A stretch of 64,000 nucleotides of DNA from Haplodiscus bocki (Eukaryota), in the NCBI GenBank assembly GCA_965655095.1, contig OZ296656.1, forward strand, positions 15,624,001 through 15,688,000, in the 5' to 3' direction. Below, piece by piece: positions 7,901 through 62,925 of the stretch. Position 1 is the first letter of the stretch, and each line of letters begins with the position of its first letter. The notes under the pieces were generated by a model. It searched no databases, was not told the origin of the DNA, and worked only from the letters and a program-made list of their open reading frames with translations. A program made the position numbers and the translations under genes.

Positions 7901-10315
7901 TGCCTGCGTCTGTAGTTGACACTTTAGGGAGAATTCAATACCTTTTATTTGACAATACATTCTGTGAATTTAGAATATAGAATTAGAATTAACGCTGTAA
8001 AGAGAATCGTTGTCTGCTACTTTGGTTCATATAATGTACGGAAAAACATAATGATAGACTTGAAAGATGTGGTGTTTGCCGAGAAAATTTGCAGGCATTT
8101 GAAGAAGTGGACTGGGTTGAAAACCTCATGGATAACTTACTACGGTCCTGATCTGGAACCAGCTCTGCCAGAGATGAATCGCACTGCGAGATCTTGTTAA
8201 GAATGCTTTGATTCAAAGATAGAACGTAATTAGGACCTATCATAGCTGGACACAAATGAAGTGTTAATTTCAATTTATAAATTTCTGCTTAGTTGTAGTC
8301 AAAAAAATCAGTAGTTTTCGTTGAACTGTGGAGCTTTCAAAAATCAGTTAAACTTGTTAGATTTGTTCACTAGTCTTCCGTTAGCTCAATTGTTGCGAAG
8401 CCCGGCTTCGCGTCTGTGTAAAAAGTTTCATCTATGGGAGGGCAACCGAGATGGCGATAAAAATCAAACAATTTATTGGCAGTAGCCGTGCAAGTTAACA
8501 AACAGATTGATTGGAGTGACCCTTTCTGATAAGCAGTGTCGCGGGTGTACTAAGTTAATTGTTTATTATTGTTTTCGCTAGCTAATATTGCTGAGCGGCG
8601 TGTGCGGCCATATGTCTGCGTTATCGTGTAAGAAAGTCTCAAAAGCTTACACTGTTATTAGCCTTGTAAATTTGCCTTGCTAAACCGCGCGAACAAAGTT
8701 GCGTAAGTTCTACTAGCAAGGACTTGGTGAGCAAAGAAGGAGTATGAAATAAGAGATGAATTATTTGGTGAATATACAGAAATGGCAGTCAACTTGTACA
8801 AAGTAAATGTGTACAAGATAAGATGAAATTTCCGATGGGTGAGATTATTAGGGGTGAGATTTGAGAAATCCAAATTATTAACTTTCAGCAGCCTCCTTCT
8901 AAATTTTATAAAGCAACTTCTACAAATTCACAACCATTATAATATCAATTTTAACTGTAATATATCAATTTTGTATCACACGACTGTAATGTAGAACAAG
9001 CAATTTTATCCCCGAAATCCAAAGAATTATTCTTCTATCCACTGTATATTTATTCCCTCGTCTAATATTCGAAGATATCAAGAAATTTCCAGCACAAAGA
9101 TATCAAACAGAAAGTATCCAAAATTTTACAATATCCAAAATATTCGAAGAAAGAATTTATAATAGATTCGAAGTTTATCGCATGATAAATTCGAAGATGA
9201 TAAATTCGAAGTTTAAGGCATCGCAGTTTTAATAAAGCATAATAAGTCAGATTTAATAATAAGTTTAGCTGAAATTTTTTATTATTCAAATAAATGGAGT
9301 AAAACAGTAATTGACAATATTAAACTTACAAATCTTCCCAAAAATTATTGGAAATGTTTATCATGAATAAGTTGAGGTAAGTTTTGGCAGTGTTTTTTAT
9401 TTTTGGAGCTAGGACGAATGGTTTCATTCGTTGTTTCTAGCTTGGCTTCTTTGCCTTTTGTACTTTTTTAGTTTTATCCCCTATGTTGTATGTAATCAGT
9501 TTAGCTAAGACTTCGGTAACATGCCATAAGGCAGTCAACCGAGTCAATTTCCTTAAGTTCCTCCTTTAGTCAAGTGTTGTCCACTGACGAGGCGCCTTCA
9601 AGTATTTCGCTTTTAGTTAGTAAATTTTCTGTTTTAGCCTTTTGTCTACAACTATGGTAACATTCATAAAGCAGTTAACCAAGTCAGGTCTCTTATGGTC
9701 CTCTTTTGGTCAAGTGTTAATCCACTGACGAGGCGCTTTCATGTATTTTCGCTTTTAGTTTAACGACTCAGTACTTGTTTAACATAGTAACTGGCCGAGA
9801 AATCTTAATCCCCTTTTTGTCCATACCGTGACATAGTCCTCGGATTTTGTTGGAGGGGTTTGAATTGTTTTAGCCTTTTAGATTTCATCTAAGACTCAGA
9901 GTTACTCGTATTCACGGTTACTGAGCTGTTTCTCTTAGGTTCCCTTGTCTCAGACGCGGTAGTTTACTCGCGTAATTGTTGAGTGGGTTTATCTTTTACT
10001 TTTGCAATTTTCGGATAACCAGTAGTTTATTAACTGACTGGGTTTGAAATGAAAAAATCTTCTAAGAATTTCTAGAAAGATTTACTCTACTAGCAATTGA
10101 AATTAGAAACTCACGGATACCATCGTTGAAGTTGAGAAAGGGTGTTGATGTTCGGGTTCTCTAGGTCTTTGGTGGCTGTTCGAGAATGTTGGAAGTTGCT
10201 CGCTGAGAAGCGGTAGAAAGTTAGAAGTCGAAGAGGAAGTCGAGAAGGGTTTCGCCTCGCGGATTTAAGCAGGTGAATTGTGGCAAGCGAATGAATACTA
10301 TGGAAGTGCGCGGGG

Positions 10316-10420: not shown

Positions 10421-10939
10421 GTTTGGCAAAGACAAGTTTAGGAATTGTTTTAGAATGATTCTAATTGAGCAGATGAAGAGATTTGGCAAAGACAGGTTTA
10501 GGAATTGTCTTAGAATGATTCTAATTGAGTAGATGAAGAGATTTGGCAAAGACAGGTTTAGGAATTGTCTTAGAAAAATTCTAGTTGAGTAGATGAAGAG
10601 ATTTGACAAAGACAAGTTTAGGAATTGTCTTAGAATAATTCTAGTTGAGTAGATGAAGAGATTTGACAAAGACAAGTTTAGGAATTGTCTTAGAATAATT
10701 CTAGTTGAGTAGATGAAGAGATTCGGCAAAGACAGGTTTAGGAATTGTCTTAGAATGATTCTGAGTAGATGAAGAGATTTGGCAAAGACAGGTTTAGGAA
10801 TTGTCTTAGAATGATTCTAGTTGAGTAGATGAAAAGATTTGGCATAGACAAGTTTAGGAATTGTCTTAGAATATTTCTAGTTGAGTAGATGAAGAGATTT
10901 GGCAAAGACAGGTTTAGGAATTGTCTTTGAATAATTCTA
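10421..10939. repeat. 60-bp tandem array in the 3' LTR (~8.7 units)
   Basis: Unit atttggcaaagacaggtttaggaattgtcttagaatgattctagttgagtagatgaagag; one 56-bp variant. Confidence 0.95.
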
Positions 10940-14016: not shown

Positions 14017-15012
14017 TCAGTAGCCCAATGGAAGCGGGTCAGACAGTTCATCGTCAGACTCTCCAGCTGAGGTGACTTGTGCCACATTAAAATTCATGCC
14101 ACTGTTCCTTGAAAAGGATCTTCGTTCACGTGGAGTGATTTCGTTAGATTCATCTTGCCCGGTTTCTTCTTCGGTAGTTAGAGGAAGTTCGTTCGTTGGA
14201 TTGTGCCCATCGTCCGAATTAAGACATTGTTCCACGTTTTGATCGTATTGGGCACTGCGGTCGACGGCACTAGTGCCAATGTTCTGGTTAGGAACATGAT
14301 TACTTTTGGAGGACATTTCATATTGTATTTTTTGTATTTCTTCGTCTCGCATTTTTTTGCGACACCATTTTGGTGTGTGTCCGTTTTTATGACAATAGTC
14401 ACAGAACCGGACAGTTTTTTGCTTTTCCTTTTTTGTCGGAGCCCATGGTCTAGATTTTTCTTCCATGGCAATAAGTCGGTATTCCTGAAGTTCTACTCGG
14501 AGGTTTCTCTTTTCTTGACCCAGTGTGGCCAGTTCAATCTTGATTTGTTCCACATCATGTAGGAAATTCGAAGATACTTGTAACATTAGATCTTGTTGAA
14601 TATTATGAGTAGAAAAGTCATTCCGGGTAGCGTTTGGGTACTCCATTAATTGTTCTCGGGCCTTTAGCTGTAAATAATTTGGTTTAAGTCCTCGCAAATT
14701 GTAGTCCATGTACTTTTGCTTTTGTTGTCTTTTTTGTGTTGTTCGTTCTGCATTTTCTTGGGCATTTGGGATACCATTCGTATCATCAGGCCAACAATGT
14801 TCAACTTCCAATCGATGGCGAAACTTATTTCGTCCCTCTGAGCATCTAGTAATGAAGTTCATTTTCAGTCCATTCCTCAAGGTGGTTGCTTCGGTCAGTT
14901 GTAAAAAAGATTCAGCATCTATATTGGGTTCGGTGCAGGAGAACTTGTCTGAGGCTGCGTAAGGATAGGCGAGATGAATAGCAGTTATTGTAATAAATAT
15001 CAAAAGAGACAT
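14017..15012 (-). CDS. gag: Gag-like protein with coiled coil and CCHC zinc knuckle
   Basis: Uninterrupted ~331 aa ORF just after the PBS; CDYCHKNGHTPKWC is CX2CX4HX4C; homologous to the disrupted ORF in copy 2. Confidence 0.75.
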   Translation of the reverse strand: MSLLIFITITAIHLAYPYAASDKFSCTEPNIDAESFLQLTEATTLRNGLKMNFITRCSEGRNKFRHRLEVEHCWPDDTNGIPNAQENAERTTQKRQQKQKYMDYNLRGLKPNYLQLKAREQLMEYPNATRNDFSTHNIQQDLMLQVSSNFLHDVEQIKIELATLGQEKRNLRVELQEYRLIAMEEKSRPWAPTKKEKQKTVRFCDYCHKNGHTPKWCRKKMRDEEIQKIQYEMSSKSNHVPNQNIGTSAVDRSAQYDQNVEQCLNSDDGHNPTNELPLTTEEETGQDESNEITPRERRSFSRNSGMNFNVAQVTSAGESDDELSDPLPLGY

Positions 15013-15084
15013 CACCCATAAAAATATAGCTCCGAAGCAAACTGCACAATTTATAAAATAAAATCAAAATTGCTCACAAATGAG

Positions 15085-15101
15085 CCTCACTGGTCGCACC
15101 A
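15085..15101 (-). promoter_or_regulatory. Primer-binding site TGGTGCGACCAGTGAGG
   Basis: Starts 3 nt after the LTR-terminal CA and is identical in copy 2. Its complement CCTCAC-N7-ACCA resembles a tRNA 3' end (possibly elongator Met; inference). Confidence 0.8.
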
Positions 15102-15104
15102 GTT

Positions 15105-18100
15105 TGTCGTGGGTGTACTAAGTTAATTGTTTATTATTGTTTTCGCTAGCTAATATTGCTGAGCGGCGTGTGCGGCCATATGTCTGCGTTATCGTGTAAG
15201 AAAGTCTCAAAAGCTTACACTGTTATTAGCCTTGTAAATTTGCCTTGCTAAACCGCGCGAACAAAGTTGCGTAAGTTCTACTAGCAAGGACTTGGTGAGC
15301 AAAGAAGGAGTATGAAATAAGAGATGAATTATTTGGTGAATATACAGAAATGGCAGTCAACTTGTACAAAGTAAATGTGTACAAGATAAGATGAAATTTC
15401 CGATGGGTGAGATTATTAGGGGTGAGATTTGAGAAATCCAAATTATTAACTTTCAGCAGCCTCCTTCTAAATTTTATAAAGCAACTTCTACAAATTCACA
15501 ACCATTATAATATCAATTTTAACTGTAATATATCAATTTTGTATCACACGACTGTAATGTAGAACAAGCAATTTTATCCCCGAAATCCAAAGAATTATTC
15601 TTCTATCCACTGTATATTTATTCCCTCGTCTAATATTCGAAGATATCAAGAAATTTCCAGCACAAAGATATCAAACAGAAAGTATCCAAAATTTTACAAT
15701 ATCCAAAATATTCGAAGAAAGAATTTATAATAGATTCGAAGTTTATCGCATGATAAATTCGAAGTTTAAGGCATCGCAGTTTTAATAAAGCATAATAAGT
15801 CAGATTTAATAATAAGTTTAGCTGAAATTTTTTATTATTCAAATAAATGGAGTAAAACAGTAATTAACAATATTAAACTTACAAATCTTCCCAAAAATTA
15901 TTGGAAATGTTTATCATGAATAAGTTGAGGTAAGTTTTGGCAGTGTTTTTTATTTTTGGAGCTAGGACGAATGGTTTCATTCGTTGTTTCTAGCTTGGCT
16001 TCTTTGCCTTTTGTACTTTTTTAGTTTTATCCCCTATGTTGTATGTAATCAGTTTAGCTAAGACTTCGGTAACATGCCATAAGGCAGTCAACCGAGTCAA
16101 TTTCCTTAAGTTCCTCCTTTAGTCAAGTGTTGTCCACTGACGAGGCGCCTTCAAGTATTTCGCTTTTAGTTAGTAAATTTTCTGTTTTAGCCTTTTGTCT
16201 ACAACTATGGTAACATTCATAAAGCAGTTAACCAAGTCAGGTCTCTTATGGTCCTCTTTTGGTCAAGTGTTAATCCACTGACGAGGCGCTTTCATGTATT
16301 TTCGCTTTTAGTTTAACGACTCAGTACTTGTTTAACATAGTAACTGGCCGAGAAATCTTAATCCCCTTTTTGTCCATACCGTGACATAGTCCTCGGATTT
16401 TGTTGGAGGGGTTTGAATTGTTTTAGCCTTTTAGATTTCATCTAAGACTCAGAGTTACTCGTATTCACGGTTACTGAGCTGTTTCTCTTAGGTTCCCTTG
16501 TCTCAGACGCGGTAGTTTACTCGCGTAATTGTTGAGTGGGTTTATCTTTTACTTTTGCAATTTTCGGATAACCAGTAGTTTATTAACTGACTGGGTTTGA
16601 AATGAAAAAATCTTCTAAGAATTTCTAGAAAGATTTACTCTACTAGCAATTGAAATTAGAAACTCACGGATACCATCGTTGAAGTTGAGAAAGGGTGTTG
16701 ATGTTCGGGTTCTCTAGGTCTTTGGTGGCTGTTCGAGAATGTTGGAAGTTGCTCGCTGAGAAGCGGTAGAAAGTTAGAAGTCGAAGAGGAAGTCGAGAAG
16801 GGTTTCGCCTCGCGGATTTAAGCAGGTGAATTGTGGCAAGCGAATGAATACTATGGAAGTGCGCGGGGTATTTATACCCGGATGGTTACGTGTCCTTTCA
16901 ATTTTGGGCGAGAGCCAATAGGATCATTCGACGAGCGAATCGAAAGCAGGTAAGTTGGCTCTGTATAACAGAAGTTTGGCAAAGACAAGTTTAGGAATTG
17001 TTTTAGAATGATTCTAATTGAGCAGATGAAGAGATTTGGCAAAGACAGGTTTAGGAATTGTCTTAGAATGATTCTAATTGAGTAGATGAAGAGATTTGGC
17101 AAAGACAGGTTTAGGAATTGTCTTAGAAAAATTCTAGTTGAGTAGATGAAGAGATTTGACAAAGACAAGTTTAGGAATTGTCTTAGAATAATTCTAGTTG
17201 AGTAGATGAAGAGATTTGACAAAGACAAGTTTAGGAATTGTCTTAGAATAATTCTAGTTGAGTAGATGAAGAGATTTGGCAAAGACAGGTTTAGGAATTG
17301 TCTTAGAAAAATTCTAGTTGAGTAGATGAAGAGATTTGACAAAGACAAGTTTAGGAATTGTCTTAGAATAATTCTAGTTGAGTAGATGAAGAGATTTGAC
17401 AAAGACAAGTTTAGGAATTGTCTTAGAATAATTCTAGTTGAGTAGATGAAGAGATTCGGCAAAGACAGGTTTAGGAATTGTCTTAGAATGATTCTGAGTA
17501 GATGAAGAGATTTGGCAAAGACAGGTTTAGGAATTGTCTTAGAATGATTCTAGTTGAGTAGATGAAGAGATTTGGCATAGACAAGTTTAGGAATTGTCTT
17601 AGAATAATTCTAGTTGAGTAGATGAAGAGATTCGACAAAGACAGGTTTAGGAATTGTCTTAGAATGATTCTGAGTAGATGAAGAGATTTGGCAAAGACAG
17701 GTTTAGGAATTGTCTTAGAATAATTCTATGATTAGGATGAGGGCGAAGAGAAAGAGAGTTTCGCCTCGGGGAAGTAGGCTGTTTAACTGAAGAGAGTGAT
17801 TGAATAAAACGACAGGGTTTATACCCAGTTATGGCGCAATCGAGTGATCGTCCAATAGGAGAGCGCCTGAAGATAGCAATGTTTGCTTTGGGATCATTTG
17901 ATCGGCGAGGAGAGGTGAGGAGTGGCGGTTGTTCAGAATTGTTGGGGTTTTTGCGGGTAAGTCATAATTCGACTTAGAATATTTTCGCTGAAAGCGATTT
18001 TGCGGCCAAGTCAGAATTTGACTTAGAATATTTTCGCCGAAGCGATTTTGCGGCTAAGTCAGAATTTGACTTGGAATATTTTCGCTGAAAGAGATATTGC

Positions 18101-19087: not shown

Positions 19088-19223
19088 NNNNNNNNNNNNN
19101 NNNNNNNNNNNNNNNNNNNNNNNNNNNNNNNNNNNNNNNNNNNNNNNNNNNNNNNNNNNNNNNNNNNNNNNNNNNNNNNNNNNNNNNNNNNNNNNNNNNN
19201 NNNNNNNNNNNNNNNNNNNNNNN
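19088..19223. other. Assembly gap (136 N)
   Basis: Run of N. Confidence 1.
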
Positions 19224-23636: not shown

Positions 23637-24570
23637 CAGTTTATTCACTGAATACATCATTTTGCAAGTCACTAAACAGTGAATACACAAATCTCAGGTA
23701 CCTTCCAAGAATCTGACTGCTTATTGAAGCTAGTTAAAGTAAACAAACAGGTAGTTCCAATGACTTCATTAAACTAAAACTTGAACCATACTGCTTAGCT
23801 AAGCATCATCTAAGGGGATAATAATTTTGCCGGTAGGGCTGGGGGAATAACGGACAAAAACCGTATGTATTCAGCGGGACAGATGCCTCTATAAACGGGA
23901 CGCGGGACAATCAGCTATAAAACTGGACGGTCCCGGTGTGAGCGGGACGTCTGGTCAGCCTATCGATGTGCGAGCCCCGCCGGGGGCTTTTCTTTTTTCA
24001 GAGTATCAAATGCTTCCTCGGAATACTTCAAACCTTGGACTGTTCCCGCTAATTTTTGCCCGCGGAATTTATTCAAGGGTTCGATTTTGTCAGCTTTGCT
24101 ACTGTGATCTTTTAATAAATGCCTGACAAATTAGTTGAACTAGATTTTTGTGCGAGGAAGCCTAAAAATAACCCACAAAAATGATTCCCTTTGAGGCGCT
24201 ATAGATGAATGCGAAATTTCATTACGTCTTGTAAATTTAAGTCGCGCATCAACGGTTAAGTCTATTTTAACAAGTTCCTAAGTTGATATTAGTTGAACTG
24301 CTACATTTTTTCAAGTGAACAGAATGAAAGTGTATTTATACTCTGTTGACTTTTTTCGTGGCCTTTTCTGTCTAATTTTGAAGCTTTCAACTTCTATCAT
24401 TCTGATCAATCATAATTTGTTGTCAGAAAATTTCAAGATGCTAACCAATCAGAATTCAACAGAACGCAAAATATGCCCGGTTTTCATCCAATAATCAAAC
24501 AAAACGTTTTCCCCGCCAGTATCCATTGTTTTTCGAATGTTCGATGTTTTTCGTATCTAGTTTTCTTCAG

Positions 24571-25139
24571 GACTGCTTCCCGGCAAACTCCCATACTTTG
24601 AATACTTTGCCGTAAATGAACCCACAATAGCTGAAGCGTACGATGTTGTGTACAAACAAAAAATCCGACCCTGTTTTCCCCCTTCGGCACCTCCTGTAGA
24701 TGCCCCGCCGATTACTACTAACTCCTACATGCAGGATGACGTAGCGAGACAAAAACCGACCACTTTCTGCAAAGTGCAGAGACTGATCGAGGAATGCTGG
24801 AGTCATAATGCATCTGCACGGATCCCTGCTTTGTTGGTTAAGAAGAAACTCGATAAACTGGGAGACGCAGTTGCTGCGGCCAAAAAGGATGTTAGGACGT
24901 TGAGTTTATTCCATCATTCACAGTGCTGCTCAGTTACGATGACAGACCCAACTGGCGCTCTCATGAGTCTGCACTGTAATCACGACGATCAACAAGAGAT
25001 TTGTATTGCAGCTGATTCTGCTCAGGACTGCAAGTGTTGTAATGGCAATAGCAACTGTATTACTGGTGACAGAGATAAACAACACCAGCAACAACAACGA
25101 TGTTTCTATCAGAAGGTGTTCGATGAGACCCTTGCTTAA
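24571..25139 (+). CDS. Last coding exon of the same receptor kinase (subdomains X-XI plus C-terminal tail)
   Basis: Acceptor ttttcttcag ends at 24570. The phase-1 join with 1128 gives RRVKPWG-LLPGKLPYFEYFAVNEPTIAEAYDVVYKQKIRP...ECWSHNASARIPALLVKKKL, matching type I receptor LPYYxxxxxDPSxEEMRKVV...RP and ECWxxxxxARLTALRIKKTL. Stop TAA at 25137-25139. Confidence 0.9.
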
Positions 25140-33300: not shown

Positions 33301-33999
33301 TCGCAATCACAGCCTTTGACAATTTCCCCTCCTCAAAAAGCGAACTACCGGGTTCTTACGGAAGTCCAATCTTGAGGTGATAAATAAAAAGTGAGTTTCC
33401 TTCATTATTAGTTTTGTCAAGCTTACCCCACTAGTGAGTGTTATATAATTTGACCGAAATCATTTCACAATTTACTAACGGTTGAAAATTCCCGAAAGTG
33501 CACATGTTTTTTTTATCGCGTTACAGAGAACGCTCAAACCTCAGAAAAGACGCTATTTCCTAAATTAAAGTTAACGAAAGAGTTAAACTAACCTCAAGAA
33601 CTTTCGGTGATAAATGAAGACCTCGAGAATTTGTAATTCTCAGATAAATACCCGAAGTGATTAATGCAGTTTGTTTATTTGCTATTTAAACTTGACTTGC
33701 GAAATTTACGAGATTACGAAAGAATTAATATTTGACTTACCCGGATGGCAGACTGAACTTAAGAAACGCGGTTGGGCGAAACAAACAAAAGTCCCTGGCA
33801 GGCAGGGAACGGGGGATAGATAAGTTGGACAAATTGGCTACAAGGTTGATATGAAAGTTTACAAATAAATATTGGTAGACTTTACGACGGCAAGATTAAA
33901 TTGACTGAGAGCTCGTTTTACGAAGTTGAAATTGCACAATTTCAAGATTTAATTTTACAAAAATGAAAAATTATAATTCGCCCACCCTAGCGGGATTTT

Positions 34000-34055
34000 C
34001 CTATTGGTTGCATGATCGACATGCTCGGTCACGTGACCAAACGGGGTATAAATAC
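34000..34055 (+). promoter_or_regulatory. LTR promoter: inverted CCAAT, palindromic E-box GGTCACGTGACC and TATAAA
   Basis: cctattgg at ~34000, ggtcacgtgacc at 34027-34038, gtataaata at 34046-34054. Confidence 0.65.
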
Positions 34056-34184
34056 CCACCGCTCAGCCACAAATTTCAGAAGCTCGCTCCCGCTCACTTG
34101 CCTTATTACCCGAGGCGAAACTCTTTTACCCTAAACTTCTCTTCTCTTCTTACTTTACCAATTCCCCTCTTCTTTTGGAGCGAG

Positions 34185-34625
34185 CGAAAATATTCTAAGA
34201 CAAATCCAAATTGTGTCTTAGTAAAATTCCAATTGCATCTTATCGAGAATATTCTAAGACAATTCCAAATTGTGTCTCAGCCAAATTCCAATTGCATTTT
34301 ACCGAAAATATTCTAAGACAATTCCAAATTGTGTGTTAGTAAAATTCCAGTTGCATCTTATCGAAAATATTCTCCGACAATTCCAAATTGTGTCTTAGCC
34401 AAATTCCAATTGCATCTTACTGAAAATATTCTAAGGCAATTCCAAATTGTGTCTTAGTAAAATTCCAATTGCATCTTATCGAAAATATTCTAAGACAATT
34501 CCAAATAGTGTCGTAGTCAAATTCCGATTGCATCTTACCGAAAATATTCTAAGACAATTCCAAATTGTGTCTTAGCCAAATTCCAATTGCATCTTATCGA
34601 AAATATTTTAAAAGAATTTCAAATT
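34185..34625. repeat. 59-bp tandem array (7 units plus a partial); second copy at 40402-40842
   Basis: Unit cgaaaatattctaagacaattccaaattgtgtcttagccaaattccaattgcatcttac. Confidence 0.95.
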
Positions 34626-36447
34626 ATCAGTGTTATCCTTCCTGGACCACTCAACGAAATATTCACTCTGCAGTCAACTCAGCTCCGGTATTCGTAAGTC
34701 CCCACTTTGCTTTGATCTAGTAGAGTTAATCTCACTGATCATTTTCTCCTAAGTAATCCTGCTCGATAAATCGCGAAGGAACTGCCGTGTTCGAGTGAAA
34801 GGACTAAGAGAAAATCACCGGGTGCCGCTTGCAGCGAGCTATACCTGAGCAGTAGATAAAAACTAAAATATTCAACCCCTCCAATAAATCCGGACGATTT
34901 ATTCACGGTTGGAAATAAGGAGAATTTAAGATCTGCGCCCAGTTGCTATGCTAAGGCAGGTTACTCGGGTTTAAATAAAAGGCTAAAAGAACAACTTAAT
35001 CCTAAAAGTAAAATACATGTAAACTCCTCGTCAGCGGTTCACGCTTGACCAAAAAAAAGGACTTAAGGGATTTGACTCGGTCGACTGCTATTATGGCATG
35101 TTACCACGGTCTTAGATAAAATTGAACCACATAACATCAGTGAAACCTAAAAGTAAAAGAGAGAAAAAGAAAGGCAAAGCCTGGGCTAGAAAAGACGAAT
35201 GTAATATTTCGTTCTAGCCAAAAATCCAAAAACGTATACCTCAACCTAGTTTTAAATCTGATAAAAATTTCCAACTTCTTTTTGAAAAGATTTGTAAATT
35301 TATATTATTGATTATTATTCTCATCTATTTATTCATTTAAGGAAAATTGAATGAATTTAATCTACTCATATTATTTGATGAAATTTTTACGAAGTATTTA
35401 TTCTTGTGCAATTTTCATCTTACTTTAATGCAGCACTGGAACATAAGCAGGATATGAATGTGACGCAGGTTAATCCCGCGCCACCTACAGTAATACCCGA
35501 AAGCCTATTCAATCTCAAGGAAACCTCCGGATTCCGCGAGCCCACTGATCTGCGCTCAAAGTTGACTAGGGCTCCAGGAATCAAACTGGGCTAACCAGGC
35601 CCGTTTTATCCGACTCGTCAATTTACTGTACCCAGTTATAAGAGCATACAGTTGTTCTATTATCATTGTCTGGTAACTGAGAACTCTCTTCTCCCAGTTG
35701 GAACCGTACATAATTATAAAGAATTGTTTGAAATTATCAGTAATCTCCGGTTCCTGTACAACGTATCCGATGCTTCCTCATGAAACTTGTGACTGTGGCC
35801 CATTCGTCTAATGTCTCAACATCTACGCGATAATATAATCCCAGAAAGTGATCATGATCTTCATCGGGAACGACCGGTGAAGGAGTCATCTCTTCTTGAG
35901 GCATATGTTCTGGATGGCCTAACGGAATTTCAATTCCCAGTCTCTGATTATTTGGAACTTGCTCATTCAAAGGAGAAGATCGCGGAGAATCATTATTAGC
36001 TGCCATTTGTAATAAACTTTGATTTTAATAATTTGTAATAATTTCCGAAGTTCAACTGAAAAAGATTAATACGGTGTTTAAATTATCTAACTTGCTCAAA
36101 TCTTGCCCCTACTAATCTCACCCCTCCGATATTTAATCTTATCTTATGCTCATTTACATTTGTAAGATTGTCTACTATTTCCGTATATTCGCCGAATAAT
36201 TCATCTATTTATCTGTACCTTTTCTTTGCTCACTAAGTCCTTGCCAGTAGAACTTCCGCAACTTTGCTCGCGCGTTGTGGCAAAGCAAATTTACAAAGCT
36301 AATAACGGTGTAAGCTTTAGACTTTCTTACACGATAACGTATGCTTATGGCCGCACACGCCGCTCAGCAATATTAGCTAGAGCGAACAATAGCAGCTATA
36401 CTTGACACGTTGTTCAATAAACAACACCCCCTGTACGCGCGACAAAC

Positions 36448-36465
36448 TGGTGCGACCAGTGAGGC
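36448..36465 (+). promoter_or_regulatory. Primer-binding site TGGTGCGACCAGTGAGGC
   Basis: Starts 3 nt after the 5' LTR end; identical to copy 1. Confidence 0.8.
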
Positions 36466-39728: not shown

Positions 39729-42700
39729 TATCGCGTTACAGAGAACGCTCAAACCTCAGAAAAGACGCTATTTCCTAAATTAAAGTTAACGAAAGAGTTA
39801 AACTAACCTCAAGAACTTTCGGTGATAAATGAAGACCTCGAGAATTTGTAATTCTCAGATAAATACCCGAAGTGATTAATGCAGTTTGTTTATTTGCTAT
39901 TTAAACTTGACTTGCGAAATTTACGAGATTACGAAAGAATTAATATTTGACTTACCCGGATGGCAGACTGAACTTAAGAAACGCGGTTGGGCGAAACAAA
40001 CAAAAGTCCCTGGCAGGCAGGGAACGGGGGATAGATAAGTTGGACAAATTGGCTACAAGGTTGATATGAAAGTTTACAAATAAATATTGGTAGACTTTAC
40101 GACGGCAAGATTAAATTGACTGAGAGCTCGTTTTACGAAGTTGAAATTGCACAATTTCAAGATTTAATTTTACAAAAATGAAAAATTATAATTCGCCCAC
40201 CCTAGCGGGATTTTCCTATTGGTTGCATGATCGACATGCTCGGTCACGTGACCAAACGGGGTATAAATACCCAGCGCTCAGCCACGAATTTCAGAAGCTC
40301 GCTCCCGCTCACTTGCCTTATTACCCGAGGCGAAACTCTTTTACCCTAAACTTCTAACTTCTCTTCTTATTTTACCAATTCCCCTCTTCTTTTGGAGCGA
40401 GCGAAAATATTCTAAGACAATTCCAAATTGTGTCTGAGCCAAATTCCAATAGCATTTTACCGAAAATAATCTAAGACAATTCCAAATTGTGTCTTAGTAA
40501 AATTCCAATTGCTTCTTATCGAAAATATTCTAAGACAATTCCAAATTGTGTCTTAGCCAAATTACAATTGCATCTTACCGAAAATATTCTAGAACAATTC
40601 CAAATTGTGTCTTAGCCAAATTCCAATTGCATCTTACCGAAAATATTCTAAGACATTTCCAAATAGTGTCTTAGCCAAATTCCAATTGCATCTCACCGAA
40701 AATATTCTAAGACAATTCCAAATTGTGTCTTAGCCAAATTCCAATTGCATCTTACCGAAAATATTCTAAGACAATTCGAAATTGTGTCTTAGCCAATTTC
40801 CATTTGCATCTTATCGAAATTATTTTAAAACAATTTCAAATTATCAGTGTTATCCTTCCTGGACCACTCAACGAAAATTTCACTCTGCAATCAACTCAGC
40901 TCCGGTATTCGCAAGTCCCCACTTTGCTTTGATCTAGTAGAGTTAATCTCACTGATCTTTTTCTCCTAAATAATCCTGCTCGATAAATCGCGAAGGAACT
41001 GCCGTGTTCGAGTGAAAGGACTAAGAGAAAATCACCGGGTGCCGCTTGCAGCGAGCTATACCTGAGCAGTAGATAAAAACTAAAATATTCAACCCCTCCA
41101 ATAAATCCGGACGATTCATTCACGGTTGGAAATAAGGAGGATTTAAGATCTGCGCCCAGTTGCTATGCTAAGGCAGGTTACTCGGGTTTAAATTAAAGGC
41201 TAAAAGAACAACTTAATCCTAAAAGTAAAATCCATGTAAACTCCTCGTCAGCGGTTCACGCTTGACCAAAAAGAGGACTTAAGGGATTTGACTCGGTCGA
41301 CTGCTTTTATGGCATGTTACCTAAGTCTTAGATAAAATCTGATATCCCGTCTGATAATTACCCAAGATTTAACTTGGTTCGGACCAAATTGGGATTTAAG
41401 GGACTTGACCTGGTCGACTGCTATTATGGCATGTTACCACGGTCTTAGATAAAATTGAACCACATAACATCAGTGAAACCTAAAAGTAAAAGAGAGAAAA
41501 AGAAAGGCACAGCCTGGACTAGAAAAGACGAATGTAATCTTTCGTTCTTGCCAAAAATCCAAAAACGTATACCTCAACCTAGTTTTAAATCTGACAAAAA
41601 TTTCCAACTTCTTTTTGGAAAGATTTGTATTTTTATATTATTGATTATTATTCTCATCTATTTATTCATTTAAAGAAAATTGAATGAATTTAGTCCACTC
41701 ATATTATTTGATAAAATTTTTACGAAGTATTTTTTCTTGTGCAATTTTCATCTTACTTTAATGCAGCACTGGAACATAAGCAGGATATGAATGTGACGCA
41801 GGTTAATCCCGCGCCACCTACAGTAATACCCGAAAGCCTATTCAATCTCAAGGAAACCTCCGGATTCCGCGAGCCCACTGATCTGCGCTCAAAGTTGACT
41901 AGGGCTCCAGGAATCAAACTGGGCTAACCAGGCCCGTTTTATCCGACTCGTCAATTTACTGTACCCAGTTATAAGAGCATACAGTTGTTCTATTATCATT
42001 GTCTGGTAACTGAGAACTCTCTTCTCCCAGTTGGAACCGTACATAATTATAAAGAATTGTTTGAAATTATCAGTAATCTCCGGTTCCTGTACAACGTATC
42101 CGATGCTTCCTCATGAAACTTGTGACTGTGGCCCATTCGTCTAATGTCTCAACATCTACGCGATAATATAATCCCAGAAAGTGATCATGATCTTCATCGG
42201 GAACGACCGGTGAAGGAGTCATCTCTTCTTGAGGCATATGTTCTGGATGGCCTAACGGAATTTCAATTCCCAGTCTCTGATTATTTGGAACTTGCTCATT
42301 CAAAGGAGGAGATCGCGGAGAATCATTATTAGCTGACATTTGTAATAAACTTTGATTTTAATAATTTGTAATAATTTCCGAAGTTCAACTGAAAAAGATT
42401 AATACGGTGTTTAAATTATCTAACTTGCTCAAATCTTGCCCCTACTAATCTCACCCCTCCGATATTTAATCTTATCTTATGCTCATTTACATTTGTAAGA
42501 TTGTCTACTATTTCCGTATATTCGCCAAATAATTCATCTATTTATCTGTACCTTTTCTTTGCTCACTAAGTCCTTGCCAGTAGAACTTACGCAACTTTGC
42601 TCGCGCGTTGTGGCAAGGCAAATTTACAAAGCTAATAACGGTGTAAGCTTTAGAGACTTTCTTACACGATAACGTATGCTTATGGCCGCACACGCCGCTC

Positions 42701-42780
42701 AGCAATTTTAGCTAGAGCGAACAATAACAGATATACTTGACACGTTGTTCAATAAACAACACCCCCCTGTACGCGCGACA
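39729..42780 (+). repeat. 3' LTR of copy 2 (3052 bp)
   Basis: Termini TATCGCG...CGCGACA; preceded by the PPT-like GCGGGGTGAG; carries an extra ~115-120 bp hairpin unit at ~41305-41424. Confidence 0.93.
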
Positions 42781-49800: not shown

Positions 49801-51823
49801 CAGTTTTTCCAAACCATTTGTTGCTTTACCTTTTCAATCATCTTTGTGACTACGCATCGAGCTTAATTAGATACCAGGTAATAAAAGTTTGATGGATTAC
49901 CGAAAATTTTGAAAATTAAATGGTACTTCTGTTGCTTCAAAAGCCAAAATTAGCGATTTTTCGAGATTTCGTTCTGCCTGGCAACTCAACTTCTTATCTG
50001 CAAATGCATCAAATACAATTAGAGACGTGAACCACTGCTCCGAAGAAGTTCGTGAAGCTTCATTATTGACAAAAAAATGACTTCTTAAGCGATGAGTGAG
50101 CCTCTTTGCGCCGTAAGTTGCCTATGTTTTGAAATCTCCGCCATTATGATTAAATAACCCAAATACAGCAGACAAATAAATTAATTGTGTAAATACTGGA
50201 AGAGAATTTTCTCGACTTTCCAAAAATTCGTAAGTAAAAGAGAGCGACATGGCAGATGGTGAAATTTTTCGGCACTGTGAGATTCAATTTTGTCAAAAAA
50301 ATAATGCGATGGCCCTTCTATGGTTATCTAAATTTTCGCGACCGAGTGATGGGCAGCGCAGAAGTTGGGCTGTGCTCAGTTTGTTTGCGATTTTACGTTT
50401 AGCTGTTCAAATCAAGAATGTCTAAACCGTAATATTGAAAGTTTCACTCGTGCGTTCTTGGCAATTCCACAACTTTAGTGTGCAATTATAAAATTTCGAT
50501 TTTACCAAAAGTTAGCGCTTGGAATGAGATGCATCAAAAACTGCAGCATTTCATGAAAATGCTTTTCTAAAGAAAAAATTGAGGTTTTCTGAAAAATTGC
50601 GCTTGTTTGAATTTTGGATAATTTTCTCTGCAATCTTCTGACAATTCTAGCTTATTTTTGAACACCTACGTATCAGTTCCAAAATTATTGACAATTTTAT
50701 GCACAACATTGACAGCCGTACGTCATGTTCCGTGTTTTACACACCCTGCTTGTTTGTCTCAAATTAATAGCGTTTGATCAAAGCTGTTATTGTTTTACCT
50801 AACTTGGTGACAGCGAGTGAAAGGAGTATACTGGCAATAGATAACAACACAGCTGAAGAGATCTAAAGAGGCTAATAGCATAACAACGATTTGTGAAAAT
50901 AGTAAACACAGATTGAGAACAAAGGCAAGAGCTGCAATCGGCGGTTGGTATCGATAGAATCGGATCGATTGATGTTGAGTACAAAGAGATGTTAGCAAAT
51001 GAATTCACTTCAAACACGGCGTTTCCTCCATTTACTTGGACAACTGCTTTGATGCGACTCCGTCGCTCTAGATCTTGAAATCAATCAAATTAGCGTAGGG
51101 TGTATTACTTACTTAACTGAAGACAGACTAATTCGAACCGCTCTGGTAGTGAGTCACAAAATAATAACTTAATGTCCATGGTCTATTGTCAGAACATGAT
51201 CCAAATACTAAAGTCATTAATTGATGCGACTAAGCAATTTTGGTACGCTTTACAATATCCTAAGTGGAGTAATGAATAATAGATCCAAGTAAACAAAGGT
51301 ACTCTGGGAAAGCCCCTTGAAAGCCCAACCGGAAGGTTAATTTAATTGCCAAACTACTTCTCCAAGAGATGGAAATTTGCGTCTCAAAGTTGAGTGAATG
51401 AACTATGAGAGCATTGCGATTATTGAATTAACTTTGGCAGTTTTCGATGAAAAAAATCTTGAAGGTGACGCAATATAGCAAGAAACAAATTCCATCTTTT
51501 GTTAGTTTCAGTTATTCCCCTGAGCTTTTATCTTTATTGCTTTTTTCACAGCTATGAATTTTCAGAAGAAATTGCAAAAACTAAAAGTATAAATTTAACA
51601 TCTTATTTTAATTGATTTTCAAACATAGCAGATTCAAGAGGGATTTTGGAAAAAATTTTGAAAAATTTTCCGCTGTCAGATAATACCAGCTGTCACAGAA
51701 ACACCAGGAGCATCTATTGACCAAATGAAATTACATAATTATATTTATAAAGATGAGAAATTTTCAAAAAATTGAAAACTTTGGCTACAATGTATTTTCT
51801 GGTTTTTGCACTACTCGTAGGAA

Positions 51824-54800
51824 TGTCATACAATGAACTGGGTTAACCAGGGTAAGCAATCCTACCGAAACAGGAGAATCATAGAAAATTAATTTTGGAA
51901 ACTTTGAATGTATATTGTTCGGATCATTGCAATTCAGAATAACGGAGAAAACTCATATACTACATTTAGCTGTTAGAAACACAATTGTTTATCCATTTCG
52001 TTAGAACAGAAATTGGCAGTCAGCAAGATTTTTTATGACCAACTTTGTCCGAAAAAAAAACCGAGAATTTAACGAACACGCCGAGTTAATTATCACACCG
52101 AAAAATGACTACAGACTGAATACAAATACGATGTATGGACAAGTAAGGAATAGCTGGGAACAGAATTTACTGACAATGGTTAGTACTGACAATGGTTAAA
52201 ACGATCGAAACAATCTACTAAAATAAAATACAATATAGATATTGGATCACTAATCAAAGAAGAAACTGGCGAAACTAAATGGAATACAGAGGAAGAAAAG
52301 ACAAGGTTTTTTGGGCACTGGGACCCAAAGCAACACATCAAAAAACACGATCCGAAGAACGAATGGAATTGGACAAATTTAAAATCAATAAACTAATCAA
52401 ACTTCATAACATAATGCTTGCCGAAAAAAAATATCACTCACGAAGAGACTTATTCGGGGCGAAACAAACAGACACCGAAACACCGGAAAACCATTGGAAG
52501 AAGATAATTGAACTGATAAAAATTTGATTTTCCGGATTTTAGCAGCAAGTTAATTTCATCAAAATTTATAACGTCAATCTCCGACAAGATTTTATGGGGG
52601 AAACTGTTGAAAGAAAGAGATCTAGACAAGCCGAAAGTAGTCAAACAAACACATACGACAAAAAGAACAATACAAAAAAAAACGTAGAGAAAAAAAGGGA
52701 ACAAGACCAAAAAAAACCAAAACAACAAAATTGCAGAAGTTGCAGTGGACCAATTTGGTACCTCAACCACAAATGCCCAACTCCAGCATCAACATGTGAT
52801 AACTGTTAAGAAAAAGGGCACTTTGCGAAAGTCTGCAGACTTGAACACCGAAGTCAACAAGGAATTAAAGAAATTACGGAACCCGAAGAGACCGAGGAAA
52901 GCGATACCAACGAAACAGTAATTATAATAACCGAAATAAATTACCTAACTGGCCAAAGAACGCCTATTAAAACCTTGACAATAAGAAGTGACGAAAGAAA
53001 AAGAGTGTTTCATGGATACCGGATCACCGGTTACAACAAAACCACCGGATAAAGAACTAACAAAGGACGAGAGAATAAAACCGAGAACCAAAAAACAATA
53101 ACAAGTTAGGAAGAATGAAGCGAAATTCCTTGGAAACTTTTTGTAGAAGCGGAGAACAGAAGAATTAGAATGAATTCGGCTGTGATTATTACCGAGCGGG
53201 AAGACAAAAAAATCGTTGCTCGGTATGGATTGGATACGAGATTTTAGATGGACCTTACAAATATTTGAAAGTACGACAAAAACAACTGACCAATCAGAGA
53301 AGGTTAGAATAATAACAAATTTTGAAAAGTTGTTCAAATTGAACCGAACGATAAAAGAAACCGAGATTAAAATACACCTGAAACCGGGCCACCCAACAAT
53401 AAAACAGAAAACCGGACCCAAACCGTACCATCTACAGAGCCATATTGAAAAAGAAATAAACTAATCAAATCCGGACAACTAGGAGGAAAACAAAACGCAA
53501 GAGAAGACTTTCGTATCTCCGACAGCAAAAAACCGTGAAAAAAAGATTAACAAAACTGCATTGGACACGAGAAAGTTAAATGCTAGCTGTAAGAAAATGA
53601 TTCCGCAGATGCCAAAAATGGAAAAATTACTGAATCAAAGATCCACCGAAACAACAAGAGTACAGAACGAACCAAATTGGATATCAAAAGTGCATTTCCA
53701 GTACGTGTATGGCCAATTAGAACTATCCCAAGAAACAAGTAGACAATATAAGTATGCAAAAACCGGAAGGAATATGAATGGATTTTACAAATTCAAAAAA
53801 TTTACGGTCCTTTCGACATCTCGACAAAATTCCAAAAAAAATAGACCAAACATTGAAATATCAAAGACCCGTGTGGCTGGATGATATAATAAGAGTAACA
53901 AGTGTGGATACAGAAACACCGAGAAAAAAAATCATTTCTTGGGAAACTCCAGGAAGCCGGATATAGAGCGGGCGAAAACAATCCGATTTTTTTCTCTGGG
54001 AAAAGTGATTGGGGCACGAAATAAATCAAAAAAGAATCAAAGCAACTAAAGAAAGGAAAAAGGCTCATTTACAATTGAAATCCCCGACATCCAATAAAGA
54101 ATTGAAATCTTTCATCCGAGCAATACAATAAATTACCGACTTTCGAGCCATAATTCTGGGAAAAAAATTGTAACAGAAAAACCTAGTCCCGCACTTTTTG
54201 GTAGAGACCCAGATAACATAGTATAGTAAAATGCAATGCGAGTAGAACCGGACTGGGAATAACTCTATGGCAAAAAAATGGCAAAAACAACGACAAAACA
54301 AACCGACCAATAGTTTTCCGCAGCAGATGTCTGAATGATGGTGAGAAGAACAAATCGATCGGAGAACTGGAAAAATTAGCAGTATTTTGGGGACATGAGA
54401 AATTTCGTTTTTATCTATACGGTAAAGTATATCTATACACCGACTACCAAGCTTTCGAAGCGAAAATTTAATTAATCCGAGGTTACCGACGAAAGGGCGG
54501 GCGATTAACAGAAGGACTAGATGGATAAGCACACTCCAATTTCTTGAAATTAATTATGGCCCGAAAAGAACCGAAACTCACGGACTATTCAAGTAGAAAT
54601 CCAACAGAAGAAGCATCCACCGAGAAAAAATACGAAGAAGAATATGTCATCAATACGCTCTCAGAACTTTTAAAAGTAAACCACAAATACGACAGCTGTT
54701 AACCACGGACCAAGAAACTCTATCAACCGACCAATCAACGAACAGGGCTTCAAAAGCGAACCGAGAACTGACCAACAAAACTGCTTCACCGAAGAAATTC

Positions 54801-57385
54801 ACTCTGGACTCTGAATCAGAAACTTTCATCTGCGAACGAACACAAGCAATCAAATTATTTAGTTGGAGCGCGATTATCTTTGACAAAACTAACAATTTTG
54901 ATTTTACAGAATTGAAAACGGAGAAGAAATTGAAATACGAATACCGTCATTGGTGAGCAAACAAGAAAAATAAGGACATAATCAACAAGAGAGACAAACA
55001 TGTCGGAACTCTTCGGTCGGTGGAAAAACGACAGGAGATTGGAAAACCTTAAACCTTCGGTTCAATTCGACAGTAATTTGAATCAAAAAGTATGGTCCCT
55101 AGAAGGCCGGACAAGAGAAGGAGAGACTGGGATGCGTCAATTGATCTCGAACTACTACTCAGAAACAATGAAAAAAACCAATGGGGTGAGGGACATTTTG
55201 AATTCAATAAACCAAAAGCAAGCACGAGCACGGGAAGGAGCAGGCAAAAGCCCGAGATTGTGCCAAGCACCGAGGAAAGCAACGTGGTGCGGCCCCAGGC
55301 AAACATCACTAATTTAGATTCAAGAGTATGACGTCCCCGAGAAAACAAAACATTTTATTCAAGTGACCCACGTTATCGAAAACCCAAAGACAAAAAACCT
55401 GAGGTGGAAGAAAACTTCAGAAGAGGCCAATTCAACTCCATGGTCGACTTAGAACTTCATTCCACAGAACTTCCGTTCATCCAGAACTGTTACATTTGAA
55501 GATAAGCTTGCCAAGTATTCAAAAGGAACAAAGAAGTTTCTCCGATTTTCAGCCAACTTACAGAACAGTTCAGTTCGGTTTATTAATTACAGGAGACAAA
55601 ATTTCTATCCCACAAGAACTGATGAAACAAGTGGTGGAAACATTGAACTTCAGACATCCCGGCATGACGAAAATGCTGACCGAGAGCAACATATTCTGGT
55701 GGTCCGGGATAAAGAAAGACATCGAGAATAAATGCAGCACATACACTGAGTGCATGAGATCCGATAAGAATTTAAAGTACCCATTCCCGTCGACGGAAAA
55801 AATCAAACTGACCCAACCTGGACAAGAAATACAAATTGATTTTTTCGGTGAACTAAATTTTAAACAGGCGAACCATACAACCTTATCGGAATTGACCGAT
55901 ATATCAAATGGCTCGTAGTTCGGATTTGTTAATCAGCCGAAGTGAAAGAAATCTTCAAGTTTCTGGAACGTTTCATCAATTACTCGGAGTCCAGGAGAAA
56001 CTAAAATCAGACTGGGGTACTGGTTTCATATCCAAACATTAAAACAGGTTTTGTAAATACAAAAACATCGAATTAGCCAATAATCCACCGAGGTTACACA
56101 CCGGCACGGGGCTGATTGAGCATCTAAAACAAACGTCAAAATTTTCGATTGTTGCCACGTTAGAAGATAAGATCAGTTTCACCGAAGGTATCAACTGGGC
56201 TTTGAGAGTAATGCGACTAACCATACACACCGGACTCAAAGTGAGCCTGTTTGAACTACATAGAAAACTGAGAACCGAACTGACTGACATATTCAAAGGT
56301 AATAGGAGCTATCTGTCCGACTTGAAACGTGAAACGTTTCAATACCGTCGAAGCAGACCCACTTTGTGTTGCATTCAACGCAAAAAGAGAGGTGACGGAG
56401 CATATGATCATGGCAAGGAACATTTCCTTGTTGCTCTTCCCATAAGTCAGCGAACAGGAGGCTGGTAAAGCCGGTTAGTGAAAACTTCCAATATGCGTGT
56501 ATATTTTTAGAGGAAAGTCAGAAAAACACGTTGGAAGGAAAGTATAAGGAAAAACGAAAAATTGCCATTCACGGTACCCAACACACGGTTCGTACAGCAG
56601 ACAAAAGAATTTTACAGCGGAAACTATTTTTAACACCGCTTAACTTTCAGAGAACACCAAATAAGGATAAGTTACCGAAAAAACATCAGTGGAGAGGGCG
56701 CAGCGGAAAATACGCGAGCGTTTCGAAAAAAGCACGAAAAATGGAGGAGTGAGTAATTTCCGAATGAAAACCGAAGGTCCGGAAAGTAGAAATGGACAAA
56801 GAGGACAGTGACTTTGAATGTTACGGCGAGTCCGACGGTAGGCCAGTGCATGTCGATGCCGATAAGGAAGTCACCAAAGAAACGCGACACTTGCACTATT
56901 ACAGATCGGGAAAGACGAAAATAACCATAATGGTGATACGAGGGACGGGAATGAGAATTTTAGTGTACGCGGGTCTAATTTCATACTTAAGCCACCGGAA
57001 CTTTTTGGTGGTGTGCCATATTTATGAATTCAAAATAACGTTTAATCCATTTGCAGTACCAACCCAGAAAGAACCACCTAAACTGAGAGGGATGACTTTG
57101 CACGAAATTGATTCGGTCTACGACCCGAACGAAAACAACTAACGGACAAAAGGAGGGGAGTGTCATACGGTTAGCGCCGTTGAGCCGGTTATGCAACCGT
57201 ACAGAAATAGAAGAATTGTAGAGAATTGATTTTAGAAACTTGTTTGTATGTATATTGTTAAACCACAAATTGCTTTTTTGTTCCGTACATTGCAGTTCAG
57301 AATTCAGAATGCCGAGGAAATATCATGTAGTACATTTAACTATTATAAATACATTTGTTTTTCTCTTTTTTGTTCGAACAGAACA
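51824..57385 (+). mobile_element. Old decayed Ty3/Gypsy LTR retrotransposon
   Basis: Short diverged LTRs (~51824-52010 and 57161-57385, both starting TGTCATAC), PBS-like TGGCAGTC and PPT AAAAGGAGGGGAG. Interior in order: gag knuckle CDNC*EKGHFAKVC, protease MDTGSP, RT DTRKLN / WLDDII, integrase HPGMTKM..WWSGI..C, QIDF, SDWG. Many frameshifts. Confidence 0.88.
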
Positions 57386-62760: not shown

Positions 62761-62925
62761 TACTAGTGGCTACGGAGCTGTTCCGGATACCACTAGTAGC
62801 AGACTGAATTTTAACTTGTACTACTAGTGGCTACGGAGCTGTTCCGGATACCACTAGTAGCACACTGAAGTTTAACTTGTACTACTAGTGGCTACGGAGC
62901 TGCTCCGGATACCACTAGTAGCTAC
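62761..62925. repeat. 61-bp tandem repeat (~2.7 units), each with a TACTAGTGG...CCACTAGTA hairpin
   Basis: Units start at 62761, 62822 and 62883. Confidence 0.9.

Follow-up and report, generated by a model that had tools for sequence, protein, structure and literature searches.

What is the short hairpin that recurs near the 3' end of the LTRs in the 64,000-nt window of genomic DNA analysed here, and what might it do for the elements that carry it? The window consists of animal DNA with 37% GC and contains exons of a receptor-type protein kinase. The initial annotation described a stem-loop with a compensatory pair change, possibly a pseudoknot, and proposed a functional RNA element for packaging, dimerisation or priming, or an unknown ribozyme. 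The positions of the features are presented in Table 1.

Table 1. Positions, in the 64,000-nt window, of the LTR elements, the hairpin copies and the pairing segments.
Feature	Position	Strand	Remarks
E1 5' LTR	18836-15105	minus	
E1 3' LTR	12046-8537	minus	3510 nt
E1 PBS	15084-15101	minus	18 nt, 3 nt past 5' LTR
E1 gag-like ORF	14017-15012	minus	331 aa
E2 5' LTR	33514-36444	plus	
E2 3' LTR	39729-42780	plus	
E2 PBS	36448-36465	plus	3 nt past 5' LTR; same as E1 PBS over exactly 18 nt
E3, true solo LTR	58370-60701	minus	4-nt target-site duplication
Whole conserved block, E1 3' LTR	8635-8732	minus	~98 nt, about 45 invariant positions
Hairpin, E1 3' LTR	8675-8721	minus	arms CCTTGCTA/TAGCAAGG; P1 arms 8714-8721 and 8675-8682
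Hairpin, E1 5' LTR	15243-15289	minus	same sequence as copy 8675-8721
Hairpin, E2 3' LTR	42572-42618	plus	arms CCTTGCCA/TGGCAAGG
Hairpin, E2 5' LTR	36239-36285	plus	two changes: one in P1 3' arm, one in loop 9-mer
Hairpin, solo LTR E3	58547-58592	minus	arms CCTTGCCA/TGGCAAGG
Segment A	8702-8710	minus	9-mer GAACTTACG; PAS-like site, complement of primer tRNA nt 48-56 (as implied by PBS)
Segment B	8684-8697	minus	complementary to LTR end/PBS junction; invariant part 8688-8697, family-specific tail 8684-8687
Long-range helix partner, E1 3' LTR terminus	8537-8546	minus	
E2 LTR end and first two spacer bases	36438-36446	plus	9-bp partner of loop segment 36263-36272

Three related LTR elements, E1, E2 and E3, are located in the window, each with TA...CA ends and a 4-nt target-site duplication (3/3). 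The LTRs are 2.3-3.7 kb long, the whole elements 9-10 kb, and the LTRs of a pair in E1 and E2 are 94-99% identical by block. Near-identical LTR pairs, a terminal inverted repeat, the target-site duplication and the PBS characterize them as LTR retrotransposons. A gag-like frame is present in E1 and E2. At E up to 0.001, 445 relatives of the E1 Gag were found, and the longer ones carry Retrotrans_gag (PF03732); this domain is found on relatives of 389-399 aa that are 44-48% identical to E1 Gag, which places it among Gags of retrotransposon type. The Pfam search with E1 Gag itself gave no match, and its atlas neighbours, scoring under 0.9, are a lead only. Gags of the E1 type may be those of acoel worms. 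A long pol frame was not found in the internal regions of E1 or E2, and both elements look non-autonomous. They may be called gypsy-type on the basis of Gag and the 4-nt duplication. The Gag of about 330 aa is without two internal stretches of its 389-399-aa relatives, and many copies keep an open frame (the E1 frame of Table 1; proteins P0001, P0013, P0024, P0034, P0047, P0049, P0053 and P0057). This could be the shortened Gag of a large non-autonomous family, maintained by selection, for example by competing with the full Gag.

The surroundings of the elements have several features of their own. Kinase exon-like frames were found at 624-1142 and 24561-25139 on the plus strand, the first with a Pfam Pkinase match, and E1 appears to sit antisense in the intron between them. 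Related tandem arrays of 59-60 nt occur in U3 of E1 and E2, with a remnant in E3 (10422-10939, 16975-17728, 34185-34625, 40402-40842 and 60205-60276); the copy number is unequal between the two LTRs of E1 (8.7 vs 12.7). An assembly gap (run of N) occupies 19088-19223, 250 nt outside the E1 5' LTR. A fourth, decayed LTR element (51820-57383) has LTRs of ~190-230 nt with 65% identity to each other; it retains a zinc-binding remnant of an integrase at 55403-55918 and lacks the motif. Repeats at 62738-62922 and 1415-1590 comprise a 61-nt tandem repeat that contains palindromes and a repeat of 29-30 nt that is self-inverted as well.

The arms, loop words and coordinates given in the initial annotation are correct at all three of its sites, and the stem-loop is present near the 3' end in 5/5 LTR copies of the window, covering all three subfamilies. 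Its distance inwards from the LTR 3' end is 140-180 nt, and it belongs to a conserved block about twice as long as the span first named, with near-invariant short segments on both sides of the outer stem, P1. A metagenome scan added four LTR fragments with the motif, L001-L004, which are homologous to the window LTRs outside the motif too. The comparison set, made up of the window copies and these fragments, has eight distinct copies in about six lineages of the tree.

The block is the best-conserved part of the LTR between distant subfamilies. Starting at the core, E1 and E3 are 74-82% identical over two 50-nt bins, against 48-66% in 12 upstream bins. Strong divergence of the flanks, as claimed, is seen in comparisons with E3 and with the metagenome copies; it is not seen between E1 and E2, whose flanks are 78-90% identical over ~300 nt. 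Contigs of four sequencing runs over 8500-8950 have the same conservation trend; depth peaks over the block in two runs, though depth there does not equal copy number, and the sole piece of one run spans 8598-8733. None of the 40 variant rows listed out of 107 falls in 8664-8738; these rows are unlinked and no covariation was drawn from them. The runs with LTR matches come from coded organisms and from coral or marine metagenomes, with no RNA run among those listed.

Further copies of the motif were also sought. The viral contigs scanned gave 0 loci. The genome contigs gave eight matches, where chance alone would give 8.7; as 0/8 had the remainder of the motif, all were dropped. A covariance model search of the window and the loci returned nine copies of the training type at 88-122 bits, the next score being 16.6, and no further copy. 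A published description was not found in the openly searchable literature; subscription journals, Repbase and bioRxiv supplements, which lie outside that scope, may hold one. The conserved hairpin is a genuine feature of these LTRs.

In E1 and E2, AATAAA is found ~30 nt short of the LTR end; E1 also has a TATA-like word (8776) and an initiator-like word (8749), 27 nt apart, just upstream of the block. On account of these signals, the block is probably part of R. A second conserved block, common to E1, E2 and L001-L004, is located ~1.1-1.5 kb upstream of the motif (9752-9882, 34797-34961, 41014-41133; L001 25-216) and is possibly an enhancer or promoter.

The compensatory change reported for the outer stem exists, and it is the only one of its kind among the 15 pairs tested in the eight copies: 12 pairs are invariant and two are merely broken. 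The covariation score of P1 is not above that of shuffles, being reached in 79/500, and among the 29,756 ordered pairs that can be formed from variable columns, 310 (1.0%) have a comparable pattern by chance. In a gap-free parsing, the seventh pair of P1 is Watson-Crick in 5/6 lineages with two pair types, and the eighth has a second both-sided change, in L001; both pairs are lost in L002 and L004. P1 is a helix of 6-8 bp, and its probability is at least 0.85 in 6/8 sense folds. The comparison of copies supports P1 modestly.

The inner structure fared differently. The GAAC/GYTC helix has an A.C mismatch in 3/8 copies with no compensatory change, and its pairing probability is below 0.25 in 7/8 sense folds. 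The local pseudoknot, imagined as GAAC/GTTC plus CGC/GCG, is unsupported: CGC/GCG is invariant and informs neither way. A pairing of the loop with a downstream GTAAG fits the E-type copies only and fails in L001-L004. An outer AGTC/GACT helix can be drawn but is likewise invariant and uninformative. The variable linker after P1 (8643-8672 minus, and homologues) can form a short hairpin whose register differs by subfamily, often with an AGCT-centred palindrome. The proposal of a functional RNA cis-element therefore stands for the outer stem, with specific evidence for a priming role in the matches of the loop to the priming site, but not for the inner structure.

The first of these matches concerns the primer tRNA. 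The PBS gives nt 59-76 of the primer, which read as a canonical tRNA 3' end: C61, a pyrimidine at 60, a purine at 73, and CCA. In tRNA, T54-Psi55-C56 is universal and the 3' strand of the T-stem fixes nt 49-53, and nt 48-56 of the primer were derived from the PBS by these cloverleaf rules. The loop 8-mer 8703-8710 pairs fully with the implied nt 49-56 if one wobble is allowed, and Y48 is a possible partner of the G that follows. Segment A is the sole fully paired site (at most one wobble) for the implied nt 49-56 in 7/8 LTR copies or fragments of 1.0-3.5 kb; in all four copies for which duplexes were ranked, it comes first along the LTR. Only 3/256 possible T-stems are able to fit it. In the whole window ten sites fit at 8 nt, four of them motif copies, and the G follows only at those four. 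One change breaks segment A in the 5' LTR copy of E2. The decayed fourth element has no T-arm complement, and its PBS is doubtful.

The tRNA strand matched by segment A is the one freed once the PBS anneals. In two leader folds, opening the 9-mer is predicted to cost 3.9-5.3 kcal/mol. The identity of the tRNA for the E1 and E2 PBS was not found in the literature searched. In one published table of animal gypsy PBS types the implied tRNA 3' end is absent, and only the Gly entries of that table share the last 7 nt (PMC13524379).

The second match connects the loop with the end of the LTR. Apart from its tail, segment B complements the final 7 nt of the LTR together with the 2 nt after them, one pyrimidine being bulged; the bulged base is the only variable one there. 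This pairing was first seen in the fold of the E2 leader, between a loop segment and the bases just before the PBS; the helix of the E2 5' leader has 12 bp, -16.8 kcal/mol and a probability of 0.97. Pairing is weak (-8.5 kcal/mol) in the E1 5' copy; one base sets its LTR end apart from that of the E1 3' copy. The bulged 9-bp complement of the junction is present in 5/5 motif copies of the window (4/5 by exact pattern) and at one unrelated place besides.

The tail of segment B could be compared in E1, E2, E3 and L004; L001-L003 stop before the LTR end. In E2, E1 (3' copy) and L004 it adds further pairs with the LTR end of the same family; E3 has no such extension. The empirical p-values for the tail against its own LTR end are 0.018 (E2), 0.12 (E1), 0.057 (L004) and 0.42 (E3), with a Fisher p of 0.012. 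The own LTR end is bound best in only two of the four lineages (E2 and L004), E1 and E3 favouring the end of E2. The number of places that bind better than the LTR end is seven in E1, one in E2, 14 in E3 and none in L004.

The helix ends 1-2 nt before the P1 3' arm in E1, E2 and L004, which suits an H-type pseudoknot. In nested free folds, made with a program that cannot fold pseudoknots, the probability of the long-range helix exceeds 0.2 in 1/6 regions; with P1 held open it is 0.15-0.98 and exceeds 0.4 in 3/6 regions. When the last 250 nt were shuffled 200,000 times, A-type sites arose 935 times, B-type sites 493 times and both together once, figures which overstate the case, as both matches were noticed after about ten other ideas and the tests were framed afterwards. 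Self-priming was one idea dropped: the best PBS partners in the last 400 nt differ in place between E1 and E2.

These pairings incline us, with some reserve, to propose that the hairpin block is a cis-acting RNA element for starting minus-strand DNA synthesis, situated in the R/U5 part of a gypsy-type LTR and comparable to the HIV-1 PAS. The assignment to the PAS type is tentative and uses the complementarity to the tRNA stretch that the PBS implies. As part of this proposal, and with equal reserve, the long-range helix would hold the block near the PBS. The mechanism could proceed as follows. Gag/NC would anneal the tRNA 3' end to the PBS, the T-stem would open and nt 49-53 would be freed. 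Segment B would then pair with the U5 end and bring the loop, 170-210 nt off in sequence, beside the primer 3' end; if P1 were closed during this step, a long-range H-type pseudoknot with a junction of 1-2 nt would result. Segment A would next capture the freed T-arm strand in the manner of the HIV-1 PAS, and priming would be stabilised or licensed. Finally, reverse transcriptase would unwind the segment-B helix starting at the second templated base.

P1 probably holds or masks segments A and B until they are needed, and by rough geometry the P1, segment-A and segment-B helices probably alternate rather than coexist. Alternatively, these pairings might link the 3' copy of the motif to the 5' end, making the RNA circular in the way of Ty3 and Drosophila Gypsy. 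It is important to note that neither the initiation element nor any rival explanation accounts for the conserved segments outside P1.

A tRNA-independent signal in a structured R region, acting in packaging, dimerisation, export or transcription like TAR or DIS, is rather unlikely and is the best placed of the rival explanations. Here P1 would present the loop to Gag or to a second RNA. The high probability of P1 in most sense folds agrees with such a role, as do the invariant self-complementary CGCG in the loop of 8/8 copies and the downstream AGCT palindrome in 6/8. Palindromes have been proposed as dimer sites in Ty1 (PMC4974528), and residual conservation in long R regions has been ascribed to stem-loops (PMC3601003). 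However, the perfect loop palindrome is just 4 nt in 3/8 copies, and the signal leaves unexplained why both invariant loop segments match the priming site.

The conservation might instead act at the level of DNA, as a core promoter, a set of binding sites for transcription factors or a splice acceptor; the inverted repeat would then be incidental, its arms co-changing by template switching. We consider this distinctly unlikely. The paired positions are mostly invariant, as constraint on sequence would have it, and the TATA-like and initiator-like words of E1 stand just upstream. We take the hairpin loop to resemble bZIP and E2F-type sites. However, the bZIP-like octamer is broken in E3, where no TATA-like word was found near the motif. 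In 8/8 copies an AG-free, pyrimidine-rich tract of 51-93 nt (8722-8792 minus, and homologues) is followed by the invariant AAG of the block as first AG, and this could be a splice or trans-splice acceptor or mere base composition; against the former, AG-free runs of 50 nt or more make up 30/421 in these LTRs. Signals in DNA also do not predict complementarity to the priming site.

It is less probable still that the functional fold belongs to the other strand, an antisense transcript or minus-strand strong-stop DNA, where it might help strand transfer. The antisense RNA folds are lower in energy in 7/8 copies (RNAalifold -12.67 antisense vs -9.22 sense), and several one-sided changes read A.C in sense and G.U in antisense. 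However, these are just 3-4 independent changes, mostly in putative helices, and the commonest of them affects the base that the long-range model leaves bulged. The difference between the strands is small under DNA parameters.

Known ribozymes and small-RNA promoters were considered as identities of the block. Hammerheads make RNA 5' ends in plant retrozymes, and non-autonomous LTR elements with ribozymes are said to exist, which would be in favour of such a role. The Rfam search suggested in the initial annotation was run and gave 0 matches at gathering score in the window, with chance-level matches only at E up to 10; over the motif, the only match to a ribozyme family is one at chance level in the outer stem (13.5 bits vs a cut-off of 80, E 5.8), so that the idea of an unknown ribozyme gains nothing from it. 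Hammerhead or retrozyme was rejected with no Rfam match and the core heptamer in 1/16 strand-copies of the scanned region. An HDV-like ribozyme likewise had no match at E up to 10 and its P3/L3 in 2/16 strand-copies, and twister, twister-sister, pistol and hatchet had no match at E up to 10, with twister and pistol loops in 0/16. The cores scanned were consensus forms, permuted or undescribed forms falling outside the scan, and no hammerhead, HDV, twister or pistol core occurs in more than 2/8 copies. The twister-sister-like ribozyme, described as two stems around two internal loops, could not be mapped onto the block (PMC11620745). A 5S- or tRNA-derived promoter of the Cassandra/Helenus/Ajax type was also rejected: ARAGORN found 0 genes, there is no tRNA or 5S match in Rfam, and the elements are 9-10 kb long.

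A self-cleaving ribozyme of an undescribed class, making the 5' end of the element RNA, is highly improbable: the ~45 invariant positions of the ~98-nt block and several possible crossing helices would fit it, but there is no Rfam ribozyme match and no conserved known core, the extra helices have no compensatory change, and the most conserved segments have a non-catalytic explanation. Equally improbable is a combined form, in which the whole block would be a multi-helix, tRNA-gated switch whose outer conserved segments are a catalytic core that cuts the transcript to set its 5' end before priming; if true, it would be a new class of self-cleaving ribozyme, coupled to the start of reverse transcription in animal LTR retrotransposons.

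What is new here is the match of the two near-invariant segments in the loop to two parts of the priming site. The proposed role in priming would give a concrete reason for the conservation of the most conserved part of the LTR and would make clear by what means a far-off site reaches the primer in an element whose LTRs measure 3 kb. Extra pairings of template and primer have been worked out in a few model elements: HIV-1, RSV, Ty1, Ty3 and Drosophila Gypsy. The HIV-1 signal is disputed, as mutations disturb sequence and structure at once. In a family with hundreds of diverged Gag copies and LTRs otherwise alignable at ~50-65%, natural co-variation could test selection on the T-arm site and on the U5-end helix.

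Several known systems can be compared with these elements. Retrozymes, Cassandra, Helenus and Ajax have in common with them that a non-autonomous element carries, within its LTR, a conserved block resembling a small RNA. The differences are that the block of E1 and E2 matches neither hammerhead nor tRNA nor 5S, that the LTRs measure 2.3-3.7 kb and that a gag ORF is kept, whereas TRIMs are reported to be under 1 kb (PMC10886601).

The HIV-1 PAS is described as an 8-nt site, masked in a stem, that pairs with the T arm of the primer, and its role is disputed (PMC3185550, PMC1865047). The PAS/anti-PAS pairing and the U5-T-loop interaction of RSV, as described, have in common with segment A a site of 8-9 nt, complementary to the T arm, outside and upstream of the PBS, with one wobble and a stem that possibly masks it. 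In contrast, the site predicted here belongs to a gypsy-type retrotransposon, is 168-189 nt from the PBS and lies in a hairpin loop beside a segment that pairs with U5.

A bipartite PBS is reported for Ty3 (PMC5371799, PMC4974528), and in Drosophila Gypsy a second, 3' tRNA site bridges the RNA ends and is dispensable for cDNA synthesis (PMC1635307). The likeness is in the extra T-arm-pairing tRNA sites in LTR-derived RNA, able to bridge the RNA ends (PMC5371799, PMC1635307). The 5' PBSs of Ty3 and Gypsy are short, 8 and 11 nt, while that of E1 and E2 has the full 18 nt; because of this, only nt 48-56 of the primer are free for a second site. The site of E1 and E2 is also different in its position near the LTR 3' end, inside a stem-loop.

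In Ty1, a pseudoknot is located beside the PBS, and long-range pairing of the R region is reported to be needed for efficient initiation (PMC4974528, PMC3592414). The 5'-terminal pseudoknot of Ty1 and its boxes 0/1 resemble the arrangement proposed here in that long-range pairing of the R region forms a pseudoknot next to the PBS. However, Ty1 is a copia-type element whose partners are described downstream of the PBS, in GAG, while in the present elements the U5 end, immediately upstream of the PBS, is the predicted partner.
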